Source of the DNA: an uncultured Eubacteriales bacterium
GTDB taxonomy: Bacteria; Bacillota; Clostridia; Oscillospirales; CAG-272
Length of the DNA: 64,000 bases
Direction: 5' to 3'
Assembly: GCA_934467415.1 (NCBI GenBank)
Contig: CAKSLQ010000011.1
Location: 22,581-86,580, forward strand
In this document: one piece after another, positions 2,605-36,896 of the stretch
Layout of the letters: each line of letters begins with the position of its first letter
How positions within the stretch are numbered: position 1 is the stretch's first letter
Translations under genes and position numbers: made by a program
Notes under the pieces: model-generated
Databases searched by the model: none
The model's input: only the letters and a program-made list of their open reading frames with translations
What the model was told of the DNA's origin: nothing

Positions 2605-3603
2605 ATGGCACAGTTTGAAGGTTACGAAAGACGCGAGGCGAAGATCCTCGGCGTCCTGAAAGAATACGGCATTTCCTCCATCGACGAATGCAAGGAGATC
2701 ACCCTCGCAAAGGGGATCGACGTGGACCAGATCGTCCGCTCCACGCAGCCGATCTGCTTTGAAAACGCTGTCTGGGCATACACCGTCGGCGCGGCGATCG
2801 CGCTGAAGAAGGGCTGCACCAAGGCGGCGGACGCGGCGGCGGCGATCGGTATCGGTCTCCAGTCGTTCTGCATCCCCGGCTCGGTCGCGGAGAACCGCAA
2901 GGTCGGTCTCGGCCACGGCAACCTCGGCGCAATGCTGCTCTCGGATGAGACCGAGTGCTTCTGCTTCCTCGCAGGCCACGAGTCCTTCGCGGCGGCCGAG
3001 GGCGCTATCAAGATCGCACTCAACGCAAACAAGGTCAGAACGAAGCCTCTGCGCGTCATTCTGAACGGTCTCGGCAAGGATGCAGCCTACATCATCTCCC
3101 GCATCAACGGCTTCACCTACTGCAAGACCGTGTTTGACCCCTACACCGAGACGGTCACCGTCGAGAAGGAAATTCCGTTCTCGAACGGCCCGCGCGCGGC
3201 GGTCAAGTGCTACGGCGCTGACAACGTGCCGGAGGGCGTCGCCATCATGCGGCTGGAGAACGTCGGCGTTTCCATCACCGGCAACTCCACCAACCCGACC
3301 CGCTTCCAGCACCCCGTTGCCGGCACCTACAAGAAGTGGTGCGTCGAGAACGGCGTGAAGTACTTCTCGGTTGCATCGGGCGGCGGTACGGGTCGTACCC
3401 TGCACCCCGACAACATGGCTGCCGGTCCTTCCTCTTACGGCATGACCGACACCATGGGCAGAATGCACTCCGACGCACAGTTCGCCGGCTCGTCCTCTGT
3501 CCCGGCGCACGTTGAGATGATGGGTCTCATCGGCATGGGCAACAACCCGATGGTCGGCGCAACCGTTGCAGTCGCCGTCGCGGTCGAGGAAGCTTGCAAA
3601 TAA
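2605..3603 (+). CDS. GGGtGRT family protein (function unknown)
   Basis: 332 aa. It contains the eponymous SVASGGGTGRTLHPD motif and starts 14 nt after the NifU-like gene. Confidence 0.8.
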   Translation: MAQFEGYERREAKILGVLKEYGISSIDECKEITLAKGIDVDQIVRSTQPICFENAVWAYTVGAAIALKKGCTKAADAAAAIGIGLQSFCIPGSVAENRKVGLGHGNLGAMLLSDETECFCFLAGHESFAAAEGAIKIALNANKVRTKPLRVILNGLGKDAAYIISRINGFTYCKTVFDPYTETVTVEKEIPFSNGPRAAVKCYGADNVPEGVAIMRLENVGVSITGNSTNPTRFQHPVAGTYKKWCVENGVKYFSVASGGGTGRTLHPDNMAAGPSSYGMTDTMGRMHSDAQFAGSSSVPAHVEMMGLIGMGNNPMVGATVAVAVAVEEACK

Positions 3604-3618
3604 GCATTCAAATCAAAA

Positions 3619-3646
3619 AGGAAACGCTGCGGCGTTTCCTTTTTTC
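3619..3646 (+). terminator. Rho-independent terminator of the pduL operon
   Basis: AGGAAACGC-tgcg-GCGTTTCCT followed by TTTTT. Confidence 0.7.
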
Positions 3647-3663: not shown

Positions 3664-3691
3664 AAAAACCGACGGTTTCCCGTCGGTTTTT
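3664..3691. terminator. Bidirectional hairpin terminator; closes the minus-strand beta-helix/peptide cassette
   Basis: AAAAACCGACGG-tttc-CCGTCGGTTTTT, with A- and T-runs on both sides. It lies 18 nt past the small-ORF stop. Confidence 0.7.
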
Positions 3692-3709
3692 GCTTTTTCC
3701 TATGTAAGC

Positions 3710-3877
3710 TCAGTTCCAGATGTCGCTGTAACGCAGCTCGGTCTTTGCGCCCGTGTAGTCCTCGGCGAGGCTGCCGTGCAGAACCGTCGGCTCCGTGCTG
3801 CCGCCGCTGGCCAGCAGAACGTCCACCGTCGAAACGCGGATGTATTCCAGCCTCGGCTGTTCGTAATTCTTTCTCAT
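3710..3877 (-). CDS. Unannotated small ORF (55 aa), member of a two-copy peptide family in this window
   Basis: Below the ORF-track size cutoff. GGAGG lies 8 nt upstream of the ATG at 3877. Translation: MRKNYEQPRLEYIRVSTVDVLLASGGSTEPTVLHGSLAEDYTGAKTELRYSDIWN. It shares an N-terminal motif with the ORF at 20940..21119 and has the same position relative to a paralogous upstream gene. Confidence 0.6.
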   Translation of the reverse strand: MRKNYEQPRLEYIRVSTVDVLLASGGSTEPTVLHGSLAEDYTGAKTELRYSDIWN

Positions 3878-3890
3878 GTCGATAGCCTCC

Positions 3891-5231
3891 TTATTCCTGC
3901 GGGATCAGACCGTTTACGGTAACGGCCTCGAGCGGCAGAACGATCTGCGTGCCGCCCGCAAGGTTGACATATGCCCATGCATAGATCGCGGTGTCCAGCG
4001 CGGTGTCCGGAATGTTCACGAGATCGACCGCGTAGGTCGTCGTGCCGGTGAACGACTCGGTCAGCGTTGCAGTGGCGATATTGACCTTCTCGGCATTCTG
4101 CGCGACCATGACGCCGTAGCTCTCAACCGTCTGCCCCTCTGCGACGTCCAGGCTGACGATGTAGCGGACAGTCGCAGTGTTGTTGCTGTAGATCGCCGCC
4201 GTGACGCTTGCCGCCGCCAGCTTGACCGGCGCTGCATCAAAGCCCTTAGCGATCTCTGCATAGTTTGCAGCGGCGAGCGCGGCATCGGATGCGTGCAGCG
4301 TGGTCGTGCCGGTCACTTCCACCGCCACGTTGCCCGCGGCGGGATTGATCCAATCCAGCGCGCCGATGCTGCCGCCGTTCCAGTTGACCGTGATGTTCTC
4401 GGCCGTCGTGCCTGTATTGGCAACCGAAATCACCTGATCCACCTGCGCCTGATCGGTAACCGTGAGATTGACGTTGCCGAGCGTGGTGTTCGGCGACTGC
4501 GCCGTGGTCAGATAGAGCGCATCGACCTGTGCCGTGCCCTCCACCGTGATGTTGGCATCACCGTAGACCTTGCCCGCCGTGCTGATACCGCGGCAGTAGC
4601 CGATGACGACCAGGCTGTTGCCCGACTTGAGCGTGATATTCACCGGGTCGGTGTTCGTCGTCTTCGGCGCTGCTCCATTCGTACCCGACTTTGCCTGATA
4701 GCCGCCGAGAATCGAGAACGCCGTTGCGGTCGCGCCGCCCGGATAGTTCTCCATCACAACGCCCTCACCGACCGTGATCGGGTGATGAGCGCCGACCACG
4801 AGGAAGAACTTGTTCTTTGTCGCCGTGTTCTTGAACGTGATGTTCTCAAACGTGGTTGCGCCGCTGCAATAGAAGCGAATGCCGCCCGCGGTGTTGTAGA
4901 CCGCATTGTTCGTCTCGCGGTAGTCCACCCCACCGTAGACGCTGGTGATTGTGACCGACTTCGGCCAGTTTTGGCGTACAAAGTAATTGTTCGCCACATG
5001 AGTGAACGGGCCGCAGACCACGACCGTGCAGTCCAGCGAATTGTCGAGTGCGGCGAATGCCGTGTTGATCGACTTCGTGGGGCTTTCGGGCGACGAACCG
5101 TCACCCGTCGCGCCGTCCATCAGATAGACGACGCTTTGTCCCTCTGCCGCGTCGGCCTGTACGGCAAACGGAATTGCCAGCAGCACCATCGCCAGCAGCA
5201 GGACGCCAAGGAGTTTGAAATGCTTGTTCAA
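3891..5231 (-). CDS. Secreted beta-helix-like protein, paralog A (signal peptide plus DUF1565/pectate-lyase-like N-terminal module plus C-terminal beta-sandwich-like domain)
   Basis: The track ORF runs to 5291. A TTG at 5231 with AAAGGGG 9 nt upstream gives (M)NKHFKLLGVLLLAMVLLAIPFAVQA as a signal peptide, and the predicted promoter (5295-5323) lies downstream of the 5291 ATG. Module motifs: VVYLMDGATGDGSSPESP and TITSVYGGVDYR. Confidence 0.7.
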   Translation of the reverse strand: MNKHFKLLGVLLLAMVLLAIPFAVQADAAEGQSVVYLMDGATGDGSSPESPTKSINTAFAALDNSLDCTVVVCGPFTHVANNYFVRQNWPKSVTITSVYGGVDYRETNNAVYNTAGGIRFYCSGATTFENITFKNTATKNKFFLVVGAHHPITVGEGVVMENYPGGATATAFSILGGYQAKSGTNGAAPKTTNTDPVNITLKSGNSLVVIGYCRGISTAGKVYGDANITVEGTAQVDALYLTTAQSPNTTLGNVNLTVTDQAQVDQVISVANTGTTAENITVNWNGGSIGALDWINPAAGNVAVEVTGTTTLHASDAALAAANYAEIAKGFDAAPVKLAAASVTAAIYSNNTATVRYIVSLDVAEGQTVESYGVMVAQNAEKVNIATATLTESFTGTTTYAVDLVNIPDTALDTAIYAWAYVNLAGGTQIVLPLEAVTVNGLIPQE

Positions 5232-5294
5232 TGCTTGAAATCCCCTTTCTTCCGCTTCAACCGTTTTTGGGTATGAAGCTTGATTATACATTTA

Positions 5295-5323
5295 AGTATA
5301 ACAATAATATTTTACACCGTCAA
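5295..5323 (-). promoter_or_regulatory. Promoter of the paralog A / small ORF cassette
   Basis: On the reverse strand: TTGACG, 17 nt, TATACT. Confidence 0.5.
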
Positions 5324-15666: not shown

Positions 15667-17211
15667 TCAGTTGGCTTTTGCGTCGCGCATGGCGGCAACG
15701 GCGATGCGCGTAAAGATGACGCAGGCTTCGCCGCGCTTGATGTCATTCTGCGGGTTGTACTTGCCGCCCGCGCCGCCGACAATGCCCGCCTCGGCGAGCT
15801 TCTTGACGGCCGCCGCGGAGGGCAGCGTGTCGTTCATGTCGGAGAGCGTGTAGGTGCGGATCGCCGCATATTCGCTCTCGGGCAGGATGTTTGCAAAGAC
15901 GATCGCCATCTCGCCGCGCGTGATGTTCCTGTTGTAGTCGGTGAACTGGCCGTCCCCAATGATGCCGCTTGTCACGCAGTATTCGACGTAGGGCATGTAC
16001 CATGCCTCGCCTGCCGCCGCCGCGCGAACCTTTGTGCCGTTGTACGCGGTGTGGATGTTGGCCGCCGCGGTCAGCGCCTGCGCAACCGTAAACGTCCCCT
16101 CGGGTGAGAACGCGGATGCGCTCGTGCCGTTGGCCAGGCCGTATTCATACGCCGTCTTCACATATTCGAGCGACCAGTGGGACGCCACGTCTGCAAACTG
16201 GTTCCCATAGGTGCGCGTGGGCGCAAAGCCGCCCTGCTTATTGAGGGTGTCAAACGAGCTGCCGACCACGCCGAACGAGATCGTCTTACCGACGGCGGCG
16301 CTGTAATGCAGCGCAAAGCCCTCCGCCGACTTGTCCTCCGGCTTGCGGTCAAATGCGCCGAGCGTGCCGCCCGTCCAGTTGAGGACGAAGCGCTGCATCG
16401 AGATCGGCTTGTCGCTGCATACCAGGCGCTCGATGTGCGCATTGCCGCCGAGGTTCAGCGTGGTGTCGGTGTTGCCCGCCGAGACGCCGTTGACCGGCGC
16501 GATATACAGCGTGCCGATCTTGGCATCGCCCTCGACCGTGACGGTCGCCGCGCCCGAGAAGTCGGAGTTGGCAAAGCCGCGCGAATAGGCGGCAATGGTG
16601 ATCCCCTCGCCGCTGCGCACCGTAATCTCCACGGGGTCGCTGCCGCTGGCCTGCGGCTTGGCCCCGCCGATGGTCATCGCCTGCCCCATCTGATAGCCGC
16701 CGCAGATTGCAAACGCCGAAGCAAAGGATTTGCCGTCAAATTTCGCGCCGTCGCTGGTGATCGTGACGCCGGTGTCAATGGTGACGGGATAGTGGTTGGC
16801 GATGACGAAGAAGTAGTTGTCGAGCAGGTGGAAATCAAGGTCGCGGAACACATATGCGCCCGCGCACATGAAGCGCTGCCCGGAGACGGTGTACTTCGCG
16901 CCCTGCGCGCGGTAGTCCACACCGTCATACACGGCGGTGATCGTCACCGTGCCGGAAAATTCCTCCGTGTAGGCGAAGAACGTGGTCTGCTTAAATTCGC
17001 CGACGAGCACCACCGTGGCGTCGTCGCGCGAGAGGTCGAGCGCATCCATCGCCGTGGTCAGTCTGCCGATCGGCGCGTCCGGCGACGAGCCGTCACCCGT
17101 GCCGCCCGTGGCGAGAAAGACCACATTGTCCGCCGCGGCCGCCGCAAGGGACAGCGCAAACAGCGAGAGGACAAGCAGGAAAAGGGAAACCAGCATCCGG
17201 TTGTGTTTCAT
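15667..17211 (-). CDS. Cell-surface beta-helix-like protein, paralog B, with C-terminal SLH domains
   Basis: Signal peptide MKHNRMLVSLFLLVLSLFALSLAAAAA. Module motifs VVFLATGGTGDGSSPDAP and TITAVYDGVDYR. C-terminal SLH-type repeats: FADVASHWSLEYVKTAYEYGLANG..., then YMPYVEYCVTSGII..., then AVKKLAEAGIVGG. Confidence 0.75.
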   Translation of the reverse strand: MKHNRMLVSLFLLVLSLFALSLAAAAADNVVFLATGGTGDGSSPDAPIGRLTTAMDALDLSRDDATVVLVGEFKQTTFFAYTEEFSGTVTITAVYDGVDYRAQGAKYTVSGQRFMCAGAYVFRDLDFHLLDNYFFVIANHYPVTIDTGVTITSDGAKFDGKSFASAFAICGGYQMGQAMTIGGAKPQASGSDPVEITVRSGEGITIAAYSRGFANSDFSGAATVTVEGDAKIGTLYIAPVNGVSAGNTDTTLNLGGNAHIERLVCSDKPISMQRFVLNWTGGTLGAFDRKPEDKSAEGFALHYSAAVGKTISFGVVGSSFDTLNKQGGFAPTRTYGNQFADVASHWSLEYVKTAYEYGLANGTSASAFSPEGTFTVAQALTAAANIHTAYNGTKVRAAAAGEAWYMPYVEYCVTSGIIGDGQFTDYNRNITRGEMAIVFANILPESEYAAIRTYTLSDMNDTLPSAAAVKKLAEAGIVGGAGGKYNPQNDIKRGEACVIFTRIAVAAMRDAKAN

Positions 17212-20898: not shown

Positions 20899-20931
20899 AA
20901 AAAGCGGGCGGGTGTTCCGCCACCCGCCCGC
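20899..20931 (-). terminator. Strong terminator directly after the small ORF
   Basis: GCGGGCGGGTG-ttccgc-CACCCGCCCGC, followed by TTTTT on the reverse strand. It lies 8 nt after the stop at 20940. Confidence 0.75.
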
Positions 20932-20939
20932 TCGCCGCA

Positions 20940-21119
20940 TCAGTTGTAGAAGAAGTCCGACCAGTTCTTATACTGATACCGTTCGGACGTGATGTCAAAC
21001 GTGTTCAGCGCCCCGCGAGCCTCATATTCGCCGGGGTTCACCTCGCCGCTGGCCAGCAGAATATCGTTTGCGGCCAGTTCCACCTTTTGCAGGGTCGGTT
21101 TTATATAGGTATGCTTCAT
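20940..21119 (-). CDS. Small ORF (59 aa), second member of the peptide family
   Basis: The track ORF 20940..21218 is trimmed to the ATG at 21119 (AAAGGGAG 10 nt upstream). Translation: MKHTYIKPTLQKVELAANDILLASGEVNPGEYEARGALNTFDITSERYQYKNWSDFFYN. An alternative ATG at 21140 overlaps the upstream stop as ATGA. Confidence 0.6.
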   Translation of the reverse strand: MKHTYIKPTLQKVELAANDILLASGEVNPGEYEARGALNTFDITSERYQYKNWSDFFYN

Positions 21120-21136: not shown

Positions 21137-22726
21137 TCATCCGATGATCGTGTTGACACTCACACCTGCCGCGATCGGCAGCGTGTACTGCACGCCGTCG
21201 GCCTCGACAAACGCCCATGCGTAAATCGTCGTGTCAAGCTCGCTTTGCGGGATCTCGGCAAGGTCGAGCGCAAACGCCGTCTCCGTGCCGTCCGTCGCCG
21301 TCCATTCCGCCACCTTGGCGCTGCCGATGACGTCGGTCTTGGCAACGAAGATGCCGTAGCGGGCGACGGTTGCATCCGCCGTCGTCACAAGCTTGGCAAT
21401 CAGGCGGATCGTGCCTGCGCCGGTCTTGTCGGTCGCCGCGCTGACGCTGCCGAGCTCCAGCTTTGCCGTGATGGCCGGGATATCGCGGGTCTCAGACACG
21501 TTGCAGACCGTGCAGGTGCGCTTCTCCACGCCCTTCACGCCGAAGTCGGCCGGGGTCACGACCATCCAGTCGCCATAGGTGTGTTCGGTCTTGCCCAGAA
21601 CGCCTTCCTCGGTGGCCGAGCAGGTCTTGCAGGGGTAGAGCACTTTGCCCTCCGCCACACAGGTTGCTGGCGTCAGCACCTTGCCGTTGGTATAATCAAA
21701 GTCGTGCGTGTGCGTTGTCAAGGAAGTGAAGTCGCCGCCCATAGTAATCGCCGTATAGCTGTCAGACTCCTGCTGCACTTTATCGGTCGCCTCCAGCGTG
21801 ACTGCGCCCGCGGCCGTCAGACCGACGCTGCCGTTCGGCTTCATGGCGAAAGAGCCGACCTCGCCGCCGGTCCAGAGCAGGGTCAGATCGCTTGCCGCAA
21901 CATTGTGGACGCCCGCGCCGTAGACCGCGCCGACCGATGCATCGCCGAACACCTCCACACGGACACTGCCGACCGTGGTGTTTCTCGACTGATAGCCTGC
22001 CGCGTACAGCTCGTTGACCGCAGCCGTGCCGCCGATGTGCACGTTGATGTCGCCGTAGGTGCAGGCATTTGACGCCGTGACACCCTGCGCCGTGCCGAAC
22101 TGGCGCGGACCGCCGACCACGATCATATCGCTGCCGGAGAGCACGGTGACATTCGTCGCCGTGGGTCTGTCCACATACTTCGGACCGGCTGCGCCGCCGA
22201 AGTTATGCTGCACGCTGCCGACCACCCAGAACGCCTTGCCGATGTCACCGCCGGTATAGTTGTTCATCGCAACGCCCTCGCCGATGGTGACGGCATGGTG
22301 CTGACCGACCACCATAAAGGAGGTGCCGTCCGCCGACGCAAAGGTGACATTCTCAAAGGTCGTGTCGTCCGCAAGGCCGAAGCGGGCATACTTCGAGGTC
22401 TTGTAGACCGCGCCGCTGTCGCGATAGTCCACGCCGCCGTACACACTGGTAATCGTGATGGACTTTGCGGAGTGCGCGCGTGCAAAGTGCGTGCTCTGCG
22501 AGAATGCGCCGCAGAGGACGACCGTGCCGTCCTGGTCGGGGTCGAGCAGGTTGTACGCCGCGTTGAGGCCGGCAACCGCTGTCTCCGGGGTCAGACCGTC
22601 CGCCTCATTGTTGCCGCTCCCGCTCAGGTACACGACGGTCGCCGTGCCTGCCGCCGAAGCGCAGAGTGCAAATGTCAGGAGCATCAGAAGCGCCGTGACA
22701 AGTGCTAGGCCGAATTGCTTTTTCAC
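21137..22726 (-). CDS. Secreted beta-helix-like protein, paralog C, with a Cys-rich insert
   Basis: Trimmed to the GTG at 22726 (AAAGGAG SD), giving VKKQFGLALVTALLMLLTFALCASA as a signal peptide. Module motifs VVYLSGSGNNEADGLTPE and TITSVYGGVDYR. The C-terminal domain aligns with paralog A (IYAWAFVEADG vs IYAWAYVNLAG). Confidence 0.7.
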   Translation of the reverse strand: MKKQFGLALVTALLMLLTFALCASAAGTATVVYLSGSGNNEADGLTPETAVAGLNAAYNLLDPDQDGTVVLCGAFSQSTHFARAHSAKSITITSVYGGVDYRDSGAVYKTSKYARFGLADDTTFENVTFASADGTSFMVVGQHHAVTIGEGVAMNNYTGGDIGKAFWVVGSVQHNFGGAAGPKYVDRPTATNVTVLSGSDMIVVGGPRQFGTAQGVTASNACTYGDINVHIGGTAAVNELYAAGYQSRNTTVGSVRVEVFGDASVGAVYGAGVHNVAASDLTLLWTGGEVGSFAMKPNGSVGLTAAGAVTLEATDKVQQESDSYTAITMGGDFTSLTTHTHDFDYTNGKVLTPATCVAEGKVLYPCKTCSATEEGVLGKTEHTYGDWMVVTPADFGVKGVEKRTCTVCNVSETRDIPAITAKLELGSVSAATDKTGAGTIRLIAKLVTTADATVARYGIFVAKTDVIGSAKVAEWTATDGTETAFALDLAEIPQSELDTTIYAWAFVEADGVQYTLPIAAGVSVNTIIG

Positions 22727-22750
22727 TGTTATCAATCTCCTTTCGCCGAT

Positions 22751-22790
22751 GCCGACAGCATCGCTTCTTTCATCAGCCGACAGCATCGCT
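22751..22790. repeat. Two 15-nt direct repeats in the paralog C leader
   Basis: GCCGACAGCATCGCT at 22751-22765 and again at 22776-22790 (25-nt period). They lie between the predicted -10 and the SD. Confidence 0.7.
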
Positions 22791-31123: not shown

Positions 31124-33973
31124 TTATGCGATTTTCTTCAGCATCCAGATGATGTCGCGCAGGGTGACCGTGCTTCTGCCGAAGTAATGCGCGCCGTCCG
31201 CCGCGGTGAAGCTGCTGTTCAGCAGCTTGGAGACCGCGATCAGCGCATCGCGTGCATTGAAGACGCCGTCGCCGTCGAAGTCGCCGACAACCCGGCGGGC
31301 AATGCTGCCCGCGCCGATCGTCTCGACCGTGATGCTGCCGGTATTCTTCGTGCAGTCAAAGGTCGTGCCGACAGGTCCTGTAATGGTCGCATAGTCGCAC
31401 AGCGTGCCGGTGATCGGTGCGGCAGTCACCAGCTTGACGGAGCCGGTGAGGTAGTTTGCGCCGCAGGCGCCGCTCTGCCCGTCGGCCGACAGTGCAACCT
31501 GTGCGCCCGCGCCGATGTTGATGGTCAGATTGCCGCCGTAGGTGCAGATCGGCGAAAAGCCTTTCCAGCGCCAGTTGCCGCCGATGATCCAGCGCCAGTT
31601 ACCGCCGTTCACCGTCACCACGGCATCCGCATCGCTGCTGCCTGCCGCGACGGTATCAAAGTTGCGCGTGTCGGGATTGGTCACGCTGTAGACCTCGCTG
31701 CCGCCGTAGACCGCATGGCCCGCAGCAAGCACGCCGACGACCGGCATGGTCACGCTGTCGGTGATCTCGACGTTGTGGTAGTTGCAGACGACGAACATCG
31801 CGCCCGCGCCGGTGTAGTTCAGCTTGAGATTGTCAATGCAGCCGTCCGTGCGGAAGCGGATCATCTTGGCGTTTTTGTCCAGTGCAAGCGTTGCACCGTC
31901 GCCGACGCCGACGAACCTGATGCTCGCAAGATCGTCGGGCGCGGTCAGCCATGTGCTGACGGTCTGTGTGCCGATGACGCGCACCTCGGCGTCCGAGCCG
32001 GGACGCAGGCGCGCGATGGCGACCTCGATATAGCGGATGGGGTCATCCGCCGTGCCTGCGCCGTCGATGCGGCCCGTGTCCGAGACATAGACCGTATCGA
32101 GCGTGCTGAAGCCCTCAACCGCGGTCACGCCGCCGAAAATCGCATTGTAGATGGCGGGGGCATACACATTCCGATAGCCCTCCGCATGGGGATGCAGCAT
32201 GTCGCCGGAGAGCAGCGCGCCCGCCGCGCCCTTGCTGTCCACCTGCATGGCCTCCGCAAAGGTCAGCGCGTAGAGGTCAACAAAGACGTACTTGTCGCTT
32301 GTCTTGGCCAGCGTCTCGGTGGCGCGGCGCTGCATAGCACGGACATTGACTGCGCCGAGCGCCGACTGGCGCTGTGACGGCTTCGTCTTTTCGTTGTCTT
32401 CATATTTTTTAATTGAGCGATAGAGCGCGCTGGTGGTGAACACCTTCTTCGTGGTCGGAAGGTCGCCGTAGCCCTTGATGAAGGCGGTGTACATCTCTTC
32501 AAAGCGCGCATGCTGACCGTCGGTCACCATCGTGTTGTAGGCGTCGTTGGTGCCGAGGCCGATGATGAACCAGTCGGCGTCGCATTCCTCGCGCGTCAGC
32601 CGGAAGTTCAGCATGTCGTTGTACCAGATGTTGTTGGTCGGCATGACGGTGGAGCCGCCGATACCGTAGTTGCCGAGGATCGCCTCGCCGCCGTTCTTTT
32701 CAATCAGCGCAAGGAGCTGCGCCGGATACGACTTGGTCTCAAAATCCCATGCACCGCTGCCCGCGCCCGTGCCCTGCGTGATGCTGTCGCCGATGCAGGC
32801 GATGCGCAGCGGCTCGTCGTAGGTCTGCGCCGCGCCGTTGACCATGTCGAAGCGCTTGGGGGTGATGTTCATCGACGCGGGATAGACAAGCGTCGCCTTC
32901 TGATCCGCACCGGCATACGCCTTGACCTGCGTTGCGTCGATGACCGTGTCCGGCGCAAAGGTCGCGCCGTCCGTGATATGGACATTGAAATTGCCGCGCA
33001 GGACCTGCGTCAGCCCCGCGCCGGTCTGGTAGGCGCTGATCTCAAAGCTCTCAAAAGTACCGCCCGTGATATTCAGCGTGATGTCGCCGTCTATCGCGTA
33101 ATACCTGCGGTCGGACATGGTGAGCGCCGAGCAGCCGCCCATGCGGGAGTTGCCGACGCCGCCGCGGCCGATGACATAGACCGGTGCGCGGAATGTGCCG
33201 CCCGTGATGGTGAGTGTGGCATCGTCGGCGAGGATACCCATGCCGGAGACGCTGAATGCGTTTTCATTCTTGTTCAGCGAGGTCTGCGTAAAGGAGACGG
33301 CGCGCCCGAAGGTACCGCCGTTTATCGTGATTTCGATCGGCGCGGCGATCGAGCCGAGCAGGCAGCTGCCGTTTACGCGGCGGTTGCCGCCCGCAAAGAC
33401 GCCGAAGTTGCCGTTGTCCACCGTGATGGAATAGGGCAGCTCGGTGACGCACTTCGCGTTCAGCGTGCGGTTCTGCGCCGCATAGCTCGTGATATCCGCC
33501 GTGCCCTCCGGCGTGTCCACGCCGCCGAAGAAGTCAACCGCGGTCGCCATCTCGCACTTCGCGGTGAAATGCAGGCTGTTGTAGCCGCCGAAGATGACCC
33601 GCTCGCCACTCGCCGTAATCGGCAGGTCGAGTGTGATCAGGTTGGCATTCGTGTTCTTGGCAAAGGTGAGGTCGGCCGCAAGGTTCAGGCGTCCGTTCCC
33701 CTCCGCCGTAAAGGTCAGATCACCGCTCTGCTCCGGCACGGTGTATGCCGCGGAAAGCGTGACCGGCGAAAGGAAGACGACCGTGCCGCCCTCGCCGCCG
33801 AGCGCGGCAACCGCCGTGCCGAGCGAGCCTGTCGGGGATGCGGCACTTGCGCCGTCGCCCGTCCCGGCCGCCGAGACATAGACGGTGCGCTCCGCCGCCG
33901 CAGCCGTGCAGACAAGCGCAGCCGCCAGGCAGACCAGTGCGCAAAGAAGCAGAATCGATTTCATTTTTCGCAT
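31124..33973 (-). CDS. Secreted multidomain protein 2 of 3 (same architecture as gene 1)
   Basis: Start at the ATG at 33973 (GGAGG 9 nt upstream), giving MRKMKSILLLCALVCLAAALVCTAAAA. SGNH blocks: CIGDSITQG, LGTNDA, DMLHPHAEGY. Tail: GDFDGDGVFNARDALIAV. Confidence 0.75.
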   Translation of the reverse strand: MRKMKSILLLCALVCLAAALVCTAAAAERTVYVSAAGTGDGASAASPTGSLGTAVAALGGEGGTVVFLSPVTLSAAYTVPEQSGDLTFTAEGNGRLNLAADLTFAKNTNANLITLDLPITASGERVIFGGYNSLHFTAKCEMATAVDFFGGVDTPEGTADITSYAAQNRTLNAKCVTELPYSITVDNGNFGVFAGGNRRVNGSCLLGSIAAPIEITINGGTFGRAVSFTQTSLNKNENAFSVSGMGILADDATLTITGGTFRAPVYVIGRGGVGNSRMGGCSALTMSDRRYYAIDGDITLNITGGTFESFEISAYQTGAGLTQVLRGNFNVHITDGATFAPDTVIDATQVKAYAGADQKATLVYPASMNITPKRFDMVNGAAQTYDEPLRIACIGDSITQGTGAGSGAWDFETKSYPAQLLALIEKNGGEAILGNYGIGGSTVMPTNNIWYNDMLNFRLTREECDADWFIIGLGTNDAYNTMVTDGQHARFEEMYTAFIKGYGDLPTTKKVFTTSALYRSIKKYEDNEKTKPSQRQSALGAVNVRAMQRRATETLAKTSDKYVFVDLYALTFAEAMQVDSKGAAGALLSGDMLHPHAEGYRNVYAPAIYNAIFGGVTAVEGFSTLDTVYVSDTGRIDGAGTADDPIRYIEVAIARLRPGSDAEVRVIGTQTVSTWLTAPDDLASIRFVGVGDGATLALDKNAKMIRFRTDGCIDNLKLNYTGAGAMFVVCNYHNVEITDSVTMPVVGVLAAGHAVYGGSEVYSVTNPDTRNFDTVAAGSSDADAVVTVNGGNWRWIIGGNWRWKGFSPICTYGGNLTINIGAGAQVALSADGQSGACGANYLTGSVKLVTAAPITGTLCDYATITGPVGTTFDCTKNTGSITVETIGAGSIARRVVGDFDGDGVFNARDALIAVSKLLNSSFTAADGAHYFGRSTVTLRDIIWMLKKIA

Positions 33974-34006
33974 TTGCAAAGACCTCCGCTTTGATTTCTT
34001 ATCTTT

Positions 34007-34148: not shown

Positions 34149-36896
34149 TCACCCTGCGGTTTGGCCAAGGATCCAGGTCACGTCGGCGAGGGTGACATGC
34201 CGTCTGCCGAAATAAGCGTAGCTGTAGGGGAATTTTTCGTCCAGCGCGCAGCGCAGCATGATGAGCGCATCGCGGATATCGACCGCGCCGCTGCCGTCGA
34301 AGTCGCCTGCAAGCACCTCGCCGCGGATGATCCTGCCCGTGTTGTTTGCCTCGTCATAGACCACGCCGGAAAGCGTGCCGGTGATCATATAGTCGGGCAG
34401 CGCGGCGTCTGTCTTGATATCTGCCGTGACAGAGCCGGTGAGATAGTTCGCACCGACAATGCCGATGTAGTCCGTGGCGGTGATCTTCACACCCGCACCG
34501 ACCGTCAGCACCATGTTGCCGCTGTAGGTGCCGATGGGGGCGCCGCCCGCAAAGCGGCGGTTACCGCCCGCAAAGCCGACCCATGTGCCGCCGTTGACCG
34601 AGATGACGGCGTTGCGGCTCGAAGATGCGCTTGCCACCGTGTCATAGGTTGTCGCCGTTGCAGCGACCGCCTCTGCGCGCGTGAAGACATTGTAGCCCGC
34701 ATAGAAGTTCCAGGTGCCCGTCGTTTTTACGCTGTCCGTGATCTCCACATCGTTGTAGCAGGCGATGATATGGGTGCCCGTTTCGGACTTCAGCGTGATG
34801 TTGTCGAGCTTCGTATTGCTGCCGAGCTTGAACGTGTTGCCCGAGATGCTGAGCACCGCGTCCGCCCCCTCGCCGACGATGGTCAGGTGCGAGGGATTCA
34901 TCGAGGAGAAGAAGTTGCCCGCGAGCGTCCAGGTGCCGACCACATGCAGGGCGGCATCCTTATTGTAGGCGAGCTTATCCATCGCGACCGCAAAGTTTGA
35001 GATGGGGTCGGCCGCCGTGCCCGCGCCGTTGATCGAACCGCTGTCCGAGACATAGACGTCGGTCATGCAGAAGCCCGCGACCTTCTTGTCGCCGCCGCCG
35101 AGCATGGCATCGTACAGCTTCCTTGCCATGATGCCGTAGCCGCTTGCGGCGGGATGCAGGTTCTCTTTGCTGTCCGCAAACAGCGCGCCGCTCTTGGCAT
35201 CGGCATAGGTGAGCTGGTAGAGGTCGATGAAGTCGTACTTGCCCGGGTTCTCCGCCGCAAGCTCGCGCGCGATGCGTTCCTGCGTGGGGTGCAGCGCCGA
35301 CGATGCGCGCAGGTCGTTCACGGCATTCGAGGTTTTGCGGTAGATGGCGGTCGTGATATAGACGCATTCGGTGTCCGGTTTGTTGCCGAACAGCGTGCAA
35401 ATATCGCGATAGTTGGCCTCAAACTTTTGCAGCGCACCGTTCGTGCCGCCGATGGTGGCCGCATCGTTCGTGCCCATCGCGATGACGTAGAGCGCCGCGT
35501 CGCACTCCTCGGTGGCCAGCGGGTAGGCCAGCATCTTCATGTAGTCACGCTTGGTGCTGGGGAGGAAGCCGGAGGCGGAAACGCCGTAGTTGGAGACGAT
35601 GATCTCGCGGCCGTCCGTCTCGGCAAGGCCGAGGAACTGCGCGGGATAAGCCTGTGTCAGACGATCCGTGGTCGCCCCCGAGACAGACAGATAGTAGCCC
35701 TCGGTGATGCTGTCACCGATGAACGCGACGCGCAAAGGCTCTGTGTAGGTCTGTGCCGCGCCGTTGACCACGTCAAAGCGCTTTGCCGTAAGGCCGAGTT
35801 CCGCGGGATAGGTCAGCGTCGCTTTCTTATCCGCGCCGGCATACGCCTTGACCTGCGTCGCATCAATGACCGTACCCGCCGCAAAGACGGGCGAACCGGT
35901 GACGGTCACGTCAAAATTGCCGCGCAGCATCTGGGTGTAGCCCGCCTGCGTGTAGTACGCGCTGATGAGCCCGCCGCCAAAGGTACCACCGCTGATGTTG
36001 ATCTGAATATCGCCGTCCGCCGCGTAGTACTTTCTGTCCGACGCGGTCAGGGTGGAAGTCTGCGAAGAGCCCGCCGGCACATTGTCCAGCCTGCCCTGCG
36101 CAAAAATCGGTGCGTTGAACGTGCCGCCCGTGATGTTCAGCGTCGCATCGTCGGCGAGAATGGCTGCACCGGAAATGCTGATATCCCAGTAGTTCTTGTT
36201 GTTCGTGGTGAGGTCATAGTCCCCCGCCTTGCCGAAGGTGCCGCCGTTGATTGTAATGGTGACGGGTGCGGCGATTGAACCGACCGGAACGCCCTTGCCG
36301 GCGCTCTGCGGTGCATTGCGGTAGTTGCCCGCGGAAAACATGTAGAAGTCGCCGCCGTCCACCGTGATGGAATACGGCAGAGTGGTGACAAGGTCGGCAT
36401 TCGCCGTGCCGTCAGACGCCAGCGCGCCGCCCATGAAGTGCAGTCTGCCGCTTGCTCCATTGTTGGTGACGACGCACTTGTCGGTGAAATGCACGCTGTT
36501 GAAGCCGCCGAAGATGAAGACCGGGTAGGTCTTTGTCATCACGATCGGCAAATCAAAGGTGAAGGTGTTGCCATTCGTGTTCTTGCCGAGCTGAAGACGG
36601 CTGCCCTGGAGCAGTCTGCCGCCGTCCGCGGCGGTCAGCGTGAAGTCGCCGCTCTGCTCGGGAATGGTGGTGATGTCACTGATGGTCACATCACCGCAGG
36701 CGACGACCGTACCGCCCTTGCCGCCGAGCGCCGAAACCGCCGCATTCAGCGTGCCGAGCGGGCTTGCCGCGCTCGAGCCGTCACCCGTGCCGCCGTCCCG
36801 CACATAGACGGTCACGCCGTCGGCCGCAAACGCCGCCGCGGTGCAAAGGCAGGCGCAGATCAGCATCGAAAGGATGAACAAAAGAGACTTGCGCAT
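34149..36896 (-). CDS. Secreted multidomain protein 3 of 3 (same architecture)
   Basis: MRKSLLFILSMLICACLCTAAAFA. SGNH blocks: FIGDSITEG, MGTNDA, ENLHPAASGY. Tail: GDFDGSGAVDIRDALIML. Confidence 0.75.
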   Translation of the reverse strand: MRKSLLFILSMLICACLCTAAAFAADGVTVYVRDGGTGDGSSAASPLGTLNAAVSALGGKGGTVVACGDVTISDITTIPEQSGDFTLTAADGGRLLQGSRLQLGKNTNGNTFTFDLPIVMTKTYPVFIFGGFNSVHFTDKCVVTNNGASGRLHFMGGALASDGTANADLVTTLPYSITVDGGDFYMFSAGNYRNAPQSAGKGVPVGSIAAPVTITINGGTFGKAGDYDLTTNNKNYWDISISGAAILADDATLNITGGTFNAPIFAQGRLDNVPAGSSQTSTLTASDRKYYAADGDIQINISGGTFGGGLISAYYTQAGYTQMLRGNFDVTVTGSPVFAAGTVIDATQVKAYAGADKKATLTYPAELGLTAKRFDVVNGAAQTYTEPLRVAFIGDSITEGYYLSVSGATTDRLTQAYPAQFLGLAETDGREIIVSNYGVSASGFLPSTKRDYMKMLAYPLATEECDAALYVIAMGTNDAATIGGTNGALQKFEANYRDICTLFGNKPDTECVYITTAIYRKTSNAVNDLRASSALHPTQERIARELAAENPGKYDFIDLYQLTYADAKSGALFADSKENLHPAASGYGIMARKLYDAMLGGGDKKVAGFCMTDVYVSDSGSINGAGTAADPISNFAVAMDKLAYNKDAALHVVGTWTLAGNFFSSMNPSHLTIVGEGADAVLSISGNTFKLGSNTKLDNITLKSETGTHIIACYNDVEITDSVKTTGTWNFYAGYNVFTRAEAVAATATTYDTVASASSSRNAVISVNGGTWVGFAGGNRRFAGGAPIGTYSGNMVLTVGAGVKITATDYIGIVGANYLTGSVTADIKTDAALPDYMITGTLSGVVYDEANNTGRIIRGEVLAGDFDGSGAVDIRDALIMLRCALDEKFPYSYAYFGRRHVTLADVTWILGQTAG

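Follow-up and report, generated by a model that had tools for sequence, protein, structure and literature searches.

Introduction

In the staphopain-staphostatin, barnase-barstar and WapA-WapI pairs, a secreted protein is encoded in one operon with a cytoplasmic protein that neutralizes it. Cargo proteins of the type IX secretion system (T9SS) that carry a type B C-terminal domain have cognate, SprF/PorP-like accessory genes next to them. The leaders of lasso peptide precursors contain a YxxPxL element that binds the RRE, the recognition element for peptides that are made by ribosomes and modified after translation (RiPPs), and a lasso precursor is expected to have a Thr at the penultimate leader position, a core that starts with Gly, Ala, Ser or Cys at a fixed distance, and an Asp or Glu at core position 7-9. 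In S. aureus, each of the regions of the sal1 lipase mRNA formerly considered untranslated encodes a small protein, and the upstream one, LspU, which is the one characterized, has no signal peptide, leaves the cell through the phenol-soluble modulin (PSM) transporters, whose genes lie elsewhere, and retains the enzyme on the cell surface (PMC12607899). Here we describe a two-gene cassette in a 64,000-nucleotide stretch of DNA from an uncultured Eubacteriales bacterium (assembly GCA_934467415.1, contig CAKSLQ010000011.1, positions 22,581 to 86,580), referred to below as the window. It pairs a gene for a large secreted protein that ends in an Ig-like C-terminal domain (CTD) with a gene for a 55-residue microprotein, and across related loci the microprotein accompanies the CTD whatever else the secreted protein contains.

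A conserved microprotein gene follows the gene for a secreted protein

Copy 1 of the cassette is made up of the following features, numbered by window position.

5323..5295, minus strand: predicted sigma-70-like promoter, TTGACG-17-TATACT, found by a consensus scan (10 of 12 consensus matches, TG ahead of the -10)
3891..5231, minus strand: large gene of copy 1, 446 residues counted from TTG 5231, stop codon TAA at 3893..3891
5154..5231, minus strand: signal peptide of 26 residues, MNKHFKLLGVLLLAMVLLAIPFAVQA (residues 1-26 of the copy 1 protein)
4290..5132, minus strand: right-handed beta-helix-like domain (residues ~34-314)
3894..4226, minus strand: CTD, an Ig-like seven-strand beta-sandwich of ~110 residues (residues 336-446; modeled strands at 336-437)
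3890..3886, minus strand: Shine-Dalgarno sequence GGAGG of the small open reading frame (ORF), abutting the TAA of the large gene, with an 8-nt spacer to ATG 3877
3710..3877, minus strand: small ORF of copy 1, 55 residues, ATG at 3877, TGA stop
3664..3691, both strands: bidirectional intrinsic terminator, hairpin AAAAACCGACGG-GAAA-CCGTCGGTTTTT of 12 pairs, 18 nt past the TGA of the small ORF

Read along the minus strand, the order is promoter, secreted large gene, a 13-nt gap from the stop of the large gene to the ATG of the small ORF that holds the GGAGG, the 55-residue ORF, and the terminator. The initial annotation had described this ORF, the GGAGG 8 nt upstream of it, the 13-nt gap and the 18 nt to the terminator, all of which we confirmed on the minus strand, and its proposal that the small ORF and the secreted-protein gene form one operon is supported by the gene layout. 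The terminator hairpin is flanked by an A-run and a T-run and is therefore bidirectional; every Rfam match in the terminator region falls below the gathering score.

An ORF this short, and one that standard ORF tracks miss, could be a chance ORF or an annotation artefact, and its conservation refutes this explanation. A profile built from the two peptides encoded in the window (copies 1 and 2) found 15 close relatives at first; when the profile was enriched with peptides from related loci, a word-indexed search returned 253 proteins at E ≤ 10. The best 120 of these 253 relatives have E-values of 1e-14 or lower and lengths of 54-89 residues, and all of them are unnamed and without a Pfam domain. 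A full HMMER pass over 1.84 billion representatives yielded 54 clusters at E ≤ 0.001, nearly all of them with 35-75 residues, no name and no match in Pfam or NCBIfam. The microprotein family is real but narrow. Within its subtypes, the ratio of nonsynonymous to synonymous substitution rates (dN/dS, Nei-Gojobori method) is 0.2-0.4 at dS values of 0.3-1.0; for the copy 2 peptide of the window compared with the peptide of the related locus L002, dS is 0.99 and dN is 0.26, a ratio of 0.27. The start codon, the Shine-Dalgarno sequence and the position of the small ORF are kept in ~60 loci. These results show that the small ORF is a real gene under purifying selection, which bears out the view of the initial annotation that it is a conserved gene, and they leave a chance ORF with next to no probability.

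In an alignment of 114 family peptides, Y5, P8, L10, L22 and L37 are invariant, and D19, L21, S24 and a Trp near the C-terminus are kept in more than 96% of the sequences. The conserved N-terminal part, called the N-motif below, reads M-(K/R)-x2-3-Y-x-x-P-x-L-x-x-V-x-L-x3-D-(I/V)-L-L-(A/T)-S-(G/T); it is followed by an acidic, Pro-rich linker, then by G-x-L-(D/N), and near the end by W-x-x-(I/F/V)-(W/F). In the copy 1 peptide, the N-motif corresponds to nucleotides 3800..3877, the second element is G35-x-L37, and the aromatic tip is YSDIW, compared with WxDIW in most relatives. The peptides of the family are acidic, and no signal peptide, transmembrane segment or Cys was found in them. An AlphaFold2 (AF2) model of the peptide alone, built from the 114-sequence alignment, has a mean predicted local distance difference test score (pLDDT) of 61 and is mostly coil, with short helices at residues 17-23 and 50-54 (12 of 55 residues helical). 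In this model the peptide looks disordered on its own, which is typical of peptides that fold on a partner. The D(I/V)LL(A/T)SG segment hints, at most, at a Gly-capped helix.

Searches with both large proteins and both peptides against Pfam, NCBIfam, PADLOC and PHROGs gave no meaningful match. Literature searches on the motif strings likewise found no match, and the main text of the small-protein survey by Sberro et al. does not discuss the family. Residues 14-30 of the peptide (window 3788..3838), LxxxD(I/V)LLA(S)G with acidic residues, resemble the DARPin consensus LEIVDVLLAHGADVNA. In the PDB, the peptide profile matched only this ankyrin-repeat helix of DARPins, LEIVDVLLAxGADV, a match that we took as chance, its score being summed over a short repeated motif.

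The microprotein tracks the C-terminal domain

We surveyed one genome per species, which gave 76 loci with relatives of the large protein, and searched all six-frame ORFs of these loci with a hidden Markov model (HMM) of the peptide and another of the CTD. All ten CTD-bearing ORFs are followed by a peptide ORF and, with loci L077-L080 included, all 17 peptide ORFs lie behind a large ORF on the same strand. Loci that match only the N-terminal beta-helix have no peptide ORF in this survey. An independent scan of metagenomes with a degenerate DNA form of the motif identified 36 true family members in 33 loci; each of the 33 assessable peptides stands behind a large ORF, and 30 of these 33 large ORFs are CTD-positive. 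One apparent orphan CTD, in L165, proved to be an edge effect, since it is cut at the locus edge, and this locus also has a peptide. The pooled set holds 60 loci with 67 peptide ORFs, adjacency being scored where enough upstream sequence was present.

The CTD-bearing proteins range from 446 to ~1560 residues and differ in their passenger regions (one is a multi-repeat protein of 1558 residues). GLUG-like repeats are found in L059, L077 and L080, and L045 has four beta-helix modules and a module that by eye resembles a peptidase. The initial annotation had defined the unit as a cassette of a beta-helix protein and a small peptide. This definition does not hold: the three further proteins of the window that have the beta-helix and end in SLH repeats or dockerin-like regions were all checked and have no small ORF of the peptide family, and proteins with other passengers and the CTD do have one. 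Given that the peptide occurs with different passengers that carry the CTD and is absent from the SLH- and dockerin-ended paralogs, it tracks the CTD and not the beta-helix, and co-occurrence in the core family is shown to be strict. The beta-helix is one of several interchangeable passengers, and the unit is re-centered as a cognate microprotein together with a secreted protein whose C-terminal domain is Ig-like. The initial annotation had considered that homologous cassettes lacking the small ORF would speak against the pairing; the outcome was the opposite, with a small ORF in every CTD cassette.

Only the large protein is widely shared as a neighbor family, being present in 49 of the 60 pooled loci; every other neighbor cluster occurs in at most 8 loci, which reflects local synteny. 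No enzyme, transporter, regulator or third gene recurs within 7 kb of the 60 loci; by Pfam, the neighbors are housekeeping genes, and the flanking genes differ between loci. The two genes of a cassette lie close together: they overlap by up to 4 nt or stand at most 29 nt apart, except for a single gap of 81 nt, and a Shine-Dalgarno-like sequence stands ~7-10 nt before the peptide start in 13 of 14 core loci and in 5 of 8 distant ones. This tight translational coupling, together with the lack of other partner genes, would fit a role of the peptide in expression or quality control, as a feedback regulator, as a degradation adaptor for large protein that has not been exported, or as something tied to translation of the 3' end of the operon. 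We consider such a role quite improbable, because the conservation of three separate protein motifs and the purifying selection argue for a specific protein interaction, and because no DNA- or RNA-binding features were found in the peptide and no regulator gene is consistently near the 60 loci.

Tandem cassettes occur in L059, L078, L080, L109, L192 and L196, and the metagenome-assembled genome (MAG) CAKSLU01 holds at least four cassettes (two in L059, the others in L002 and L005). A single locus is represented by L077, L078 and L079 and has either one cassette or two, the second tandem cassette (L078 4455..6135) varying between strains of one species. The suggestion that the pair moves or duplicates as a unit therefore stands in part: inheritance and duplication as a unit are supported by the two copies in the window, the tandem arrays and the difference between L077 and L078, and movement is not shown; no mobile-element genes lie alongside.

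The C-terminal domain is a conserved Ig-like sandwich

The AF2 model of the copy 1 large protein (pLDDT 84, predicted template modeling score 0.82) shows a signal helix, a run of strands and a sandwich. Residues 34-314 form ~25 short strands with high pLDDT, which is consistent with a beta-helix, and Foldseek gives this domain only weak, low-TM matches to phage pectate-lyase-like proteins of the pectate-lyase superfamily (E 2e-4 to 3e-3). For the CTD, Foldseek finds only generic sandwiches, such as ApaG and the Fn3-like C-terminal domains of GH3 enzymes, at E-values of about 1e-3. The large protein has no sequence match in Pfam, NCBIfam or the PDB. The CTD is acidic, as is the peptide, and it is kept across loci rather than polymorphic.

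These properties of the CTD bear on the possibility that the cassette encodes a toxin and its immunity protein, or an enzyme and its inhibitor, with a CTD that would be harmful if it folded inside the producer and a small cytoplasmic protein that would neutralize it. The gene order, with a Sec-exported protein followed in the same operon by a signal-less, acidic small protein, fits this idea, as do the autonomy of the module and its several copies per genome. The CTD, however, is an acidic Ig-like sandwich with ApaG- and Fn3-like fold matches only and no toxin or enzyme match in Pfam, PADLOC or the PDB, and it is conserved where a toxin would be expected to be polymorphic. The peptide, at 36-62 residues and disordered, also falls short of known immunity proteins or inhibitors in size and in structure, and its most conserved part is common to loci with different upstream C-termini. 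We therefore regard such a pair as highly improbable.

Two further ideas were considered and set aside. A phage origin, as a tail fiber with its assembly chaperone, is unlikely given the Sec signal peptides, the lack of PHROGs matches, and a motif scan of IMG/VR that returned one chance match in a 166-residue phage protein. A Tat hitch-hiker route is unlikely as well, there being no twin-arginine motif once the starts are corrected.

Distant relatives of the microprotein

Relatives with E-values of 1e-4 to 1e-3 keep the N-motif (e.g. MKKNYEEPELELIKLDSEDIIVTSG...) and have short acidic tails. All eight that were examined lie 3-30 nt (once 81 nt) behind genes for large secreted proteins, which carry LRR_5, Listeria-Bacteroides repeat or BACON domains. 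By eye, several of these large proteins share a final hairpin, xYAxAYxxxxG..., and some end in another helix-ended module. Adjacency to a large upstream gene is general in the family, and the link to the CTD is specific to the core family, which includes both window copies.

The large proteins of L081, L083 and L087 end in a second recurring C-terminal module that is absent from Pfam and that occurs with the shortest peptide relatives. It consists of a repeated A(L/M)xxYGxxAxxY helix motif, e.g. LKAMYTYNQATIAYLNK at the very end.

Two borderline members, P0190 and P0202, follow proteins with BACON or InlB-B repeats (L084 270..2909 and L092 2..1716). By eye, the tails of these proteins are T9SS-like (...KGVYIVNGKKVIIK and ...KGHLYITKGKTFIAR), and Pfam and NCBIfam did not confirm a T9SS domain. 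These loci suggest that the microprotein family may extend into Bacteroidota.

A proposed role as a cognate partner of the C-terminal domain

The two genes of the cassette make up an operon complete in itself, one instance of an unannotated module that is widespread in gut Clostridia. The first gene encodes a Sec-exported, modular exoprotein or surface protein, here with a putative pectate-lyase-like beta-helix passenger and the Ig-like CTD, and the second gene, translationally coupled to the first, encodes the 55-residue, acidic, signal-less microprotein. Under the reading that we favor, the microprotein would bind the CTD of the protein translated immediately ahead of it on their common mRNA and would fold upon binding, through its N-terminal strand-plus-helix motif YxxPxL...D(I/V)LL(A/T)S. 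More speculatively, it might serve as a private cytoplasmic escort or cap that holds the last-made, fast-folding CTD export-competent, or masked, until Sec translocation, and it would then remain in the cytoplasm. Binding is placed in the cytoplasm because the microprotein has no signal peptide; that it acts there, and does so as an escort or cap, is speculative. We favor a binding partner because the pair is autonomous and coupled, because the peptide looks disordered alone, and because it co-occurs with one domain whatever that domain is fused to. Peptide and CTD also diverge together: across cassettes, identity of the N-motif (Spearman coefficient 0.70) and of the tail (0.54) correlates with CTD identity, a correlation confounded by shared descent. 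The proposal that the microprotein is a cognate partner of the CTD, translationally coupled to it and binding it as escort or cap, is tentative, and we think it possible and somewhat more doubtful than not.

Several observations weigh against this proposal. The modeled CTD is already a complete seven-strand sandwich, with no obvious need for a donated strand, and the CTD and the peptide are both acidic. The CTD HMM gives no match at the C-termini of the proteins upstream of the distant relatives. The N-motif is kept beside these other upstream C-termini, and it may therefore be read by a common cellular machine rather than by the CTD. In the tandem cassettes of L078, the CTDs are 87% identical but the peptide tails only 44%, which does not look like tight co-evolution of the tails with the CTD. 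Finally, we know of no precedent in Firmicutes for dedicated small chaperones of Sec substrates.

The idea that the N-motif donates a strand, by mimicking the first strand of the CTD, was tried and is unsupported: in 3 of 7 proteins the best local match falls on this strand, but every score is negative.

If a common machine reads the N-motif, the microprotein could instead be an exported peptide of the leader-core type, which is the main rival to a CTD partner. The first ~25 residues would then be a leader for a processing or export machine encoded elsewhere, and the rest of the peptide, variable and acidic, would leave the cell to serve as a signal, or as an extracellular partner helping to retain or organize the surface protein. 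The conserved N-terminus and variable C-terminus of the peptide fit such a division, as does the persistence of the N-motif where the upstream proteins have different C-termini, and YxxPxL is the element by which the RRE binds lasso leaders. The signal-less small proteins on an exoenzyme mRNA, as in the case of sal1 and LspU, provide a precedent (PMC12607899). Against this, no processing enzyme or transporter recurs near the 60 loci, and there is no conserved cleavage site: among the 114 sequences, the residue after S24 is G in 70 (61%), T in 36 (32%) and S in 4, and the next residue is most often E (47 sequences), G (40) or T (10). The putative cores have neither Cys nor an obvious modifiable pattern, are acidic rather than amphipathic or cationic, and match no precursor model of NCBIfam or Pfam at E ≤ 1. 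Moreover, the peptides are never found apart from a gene for a large secreted protein, which a leader for a remote machine would not predict. We thus consider an exported leader-core peptide somewhat unlikely.

The guts of humans and animals harbor abundant Oscillospiraceae and related uncultured Clostridia and, to our knowledge, it is poorly understood how these bacteria present on their surface, or release, their large proteins of the adhesin-like and carbohydrate-active kinds. A microprotein family that is strictly tied to such proteins, present in several copies per genome and invisible to standard annotation points to a missing component of their surface-protein biology, and the CTD together with the peptide is a simple genomic marker for finding the proteins concerned. 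In the boldest reading, the microproteins could mark a pathway, so far undescribed, by which large surface proteins of monoderm gut Clostridia, and perhaps of Bacteroidota, are made, sorted or retained. The CTD and its cognate microprotein would jointly set export competence or surface attachment in this pathway and would take the place of the SLH, dockerin or LPXTG modules of paralogs. We regard this reading as unlikely.

Start of the copy 1 operon

The -10 element of the promoter found by the scan ends 4 nt ahead of the ATG at 5291 on the minus strand, from which the ORF track had called the large gene. The initial annotation had placed the promoter downstream of this ATG; read on the minus strand, it lies directly upstream. 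A second -10 candidate, a perfect TATAAT at 5288..5283 on the minus strand, lies inside the ORF that begins at ATG 5291. This TATAAT is directly preceded by TG (window 5283..5290) and stands 7 nt downstream of the scanned TATACT, and the copy 1 operon may have two overlapping -10 elements. The ATG at 5291 lies at or before the predicted transcript start and therefore cannot be the start of the large gene.

The start is most likely TTG 5231, which the initial annotation had preferred and which gains support from AAAGGGGA 9 nt upstream and from the alignment of homologs. It aligns with the Met-Lys-Lys starts of 7 of 8 aligned homologs (P0021, P0023, taken from an internal Lys, P0025, P0028, P0030, P0032 and P0033). 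P0019, a close ortholog, is the only aligned homolog with an extended N-terminus like that of the 5291 call, and P0020, an ortholog of 446 residues, is called from the start equivalent to TTG 5231.

On the other side of the cassette, a second hairpin, AAAAAGGAAACGCTGCGGCGTTTCCTTTTTT on the plus strand (window 3612..3645), adjoins the terminator at 3664..3691 and probably terminates the convergent GGGtGRT-family gene at 2605..3603.

The second cassette and other beta-helix proteins of the window

A second cassette was located in the window by tblastn, at 21137..22786 for the large gene as listed by the ORF track and at 20940..21119 for the peptide. Its features are as follows.

21137..22726, minus strand: large gene of copy 2, likely start codon GTG 22726, preceded by GGAGA at a distance of 9 nt; same beta-helix and CTD
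20940..21119, minus strand: small ORF of copy 2, 59 residues, same peptide family
20907..20921: terminator of copy 2, following the small ORF

The ATG at 22786 used by the ORF track adds 20 residues that most aligned homologs lack, and the large gene of copy 2 probably starts at GTG 22726, matching the MKK start of most of these homologs. The initial annotation had noted a nearly identical motif core in the two copies. Indeed, the window contains exactly two occurrences of the 21-nt core GAYRTTCTGCTGGCCAGCGGC, one at 3803..3823 and the other at 21045..21065; shuffled sequence gives a mean of 0.04 matches, and none of 100 shuffles reaches two.

Between its passenger and its CTD, at residues ~330-430, the copy 2 protein carries a Cys-rich insert with paired CxxC-like motifs. 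The insert is found in most homologs (L002, L027, L059 and L087 included), one example being TCVAEGKVLYPCKTCSATEEG...HTYGDW...KRTCTVCNVSE, and copy 1 is without it. From its residue pattern, it looks like a zinc-ribbon-like module, which would be unusual for a Sec-exported protein.

The three further window proteins with the same N-terminal beta-helix domain are encoded at 15667..17211, 31124..33979 and 34149..36896, all on the minus strand. One ends in SLH repeats, and the other two have GDSL esterase domains and weak dockerin matches. The beta-helix domain itself is unannotated, and its copies in the window have the motifs GDG and TSVYGGVDYR in common. The three proteins look like a family of carbohydrate-active surface enzymes, and GH43, DUF5696 and LacI genes lie around them.

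Comparison with known systems

The cassette could not be assigned to a known kind, as defining features that we tested for are lacking in the case of each known system considered. This is a lack of assignment rather than a demonstrated new mechanism, and the mechanism may still prove to vary on that of partner or chaperone systems.

Like a lasso or other RRE-dependent RiPP precursor, the microprotein is a small signal-less peptide with an invariant Y-x-x-P-x-L (114 of 114 sequences), after which a hydrophobic segment is conserved and the C-terminal part varies, and it probably binds its partner in an extended form, as lasso leaders do. The other landmarks of lasso leaders are absent, there being no Gly at L+4, no Thr at the penultimate leader position and no Thr-x-Gly junction; positions L+4 and L+10 of the peptide are variable or hydrophobic (R/E/S and V/I). 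None of the lasso B and C genes (protease, RRE, cyclase) stands beside the 60 peptide loci, where the neighbor is always a large secreted protein, and the lasso and RiPP precursor models of NCBIfam and Pfam gave no match (E ≤ 1 or E ≤ 0.1). Double-glycine bacteriocins and substrates of peptidase-containing ATP-binding cassette (ABC) transporters differ from the microproteins in two respects: their invariant GG/GA/GS cleavage site is absent from the peptide family, and no C39-peptidase ABC exporter lies near any peptide locus.

The pairs of a secreted protein and a neutralizer are similar in that a Sec-exported protein is followed by a small, acidic, signal-less protein in one operon. Here, however, the constant partner is an Ig-like domain and not an enzyme, the peptide is disordered and at most half as large as such neutralizers, and there is no sign of toxicity or polymorphism. 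A polymorphic toxin-immunity pair likewise shares the signal-less product encoded directly downstream but has a C-terminal toxin domain, which was not found in the large protein.

As in T9SS cargo, Sec-exported proteins that are otherwise unrelated carry a seven-strand Ig-like sandwich at their extreme C-terminus, and a cognate accessory gene lies directly downstream. The host of the cassette, however, belongs to the monoderm Oscillospiraceae and not to Bacteroidota (the closest genome is an Oscillospiraceae MAG), the CTD matches no T9SS model in Pfam or NCBIfam, and the accessory protein is a soluble peptide of 55 residues rather than an outer-membrane barrel.

The small proteins of sal1 are PSM-like amphipathic helices, whereas the peptides described here are acidic, do not form amphipathic helices and are always encoded downstream of the large gene. 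The two cases nevertheless agree in that the mRNA for a secreted enzyme also encodes unannotated, signal-less microproteins, and LspU affects where that enzyme is located (PMC12607899).

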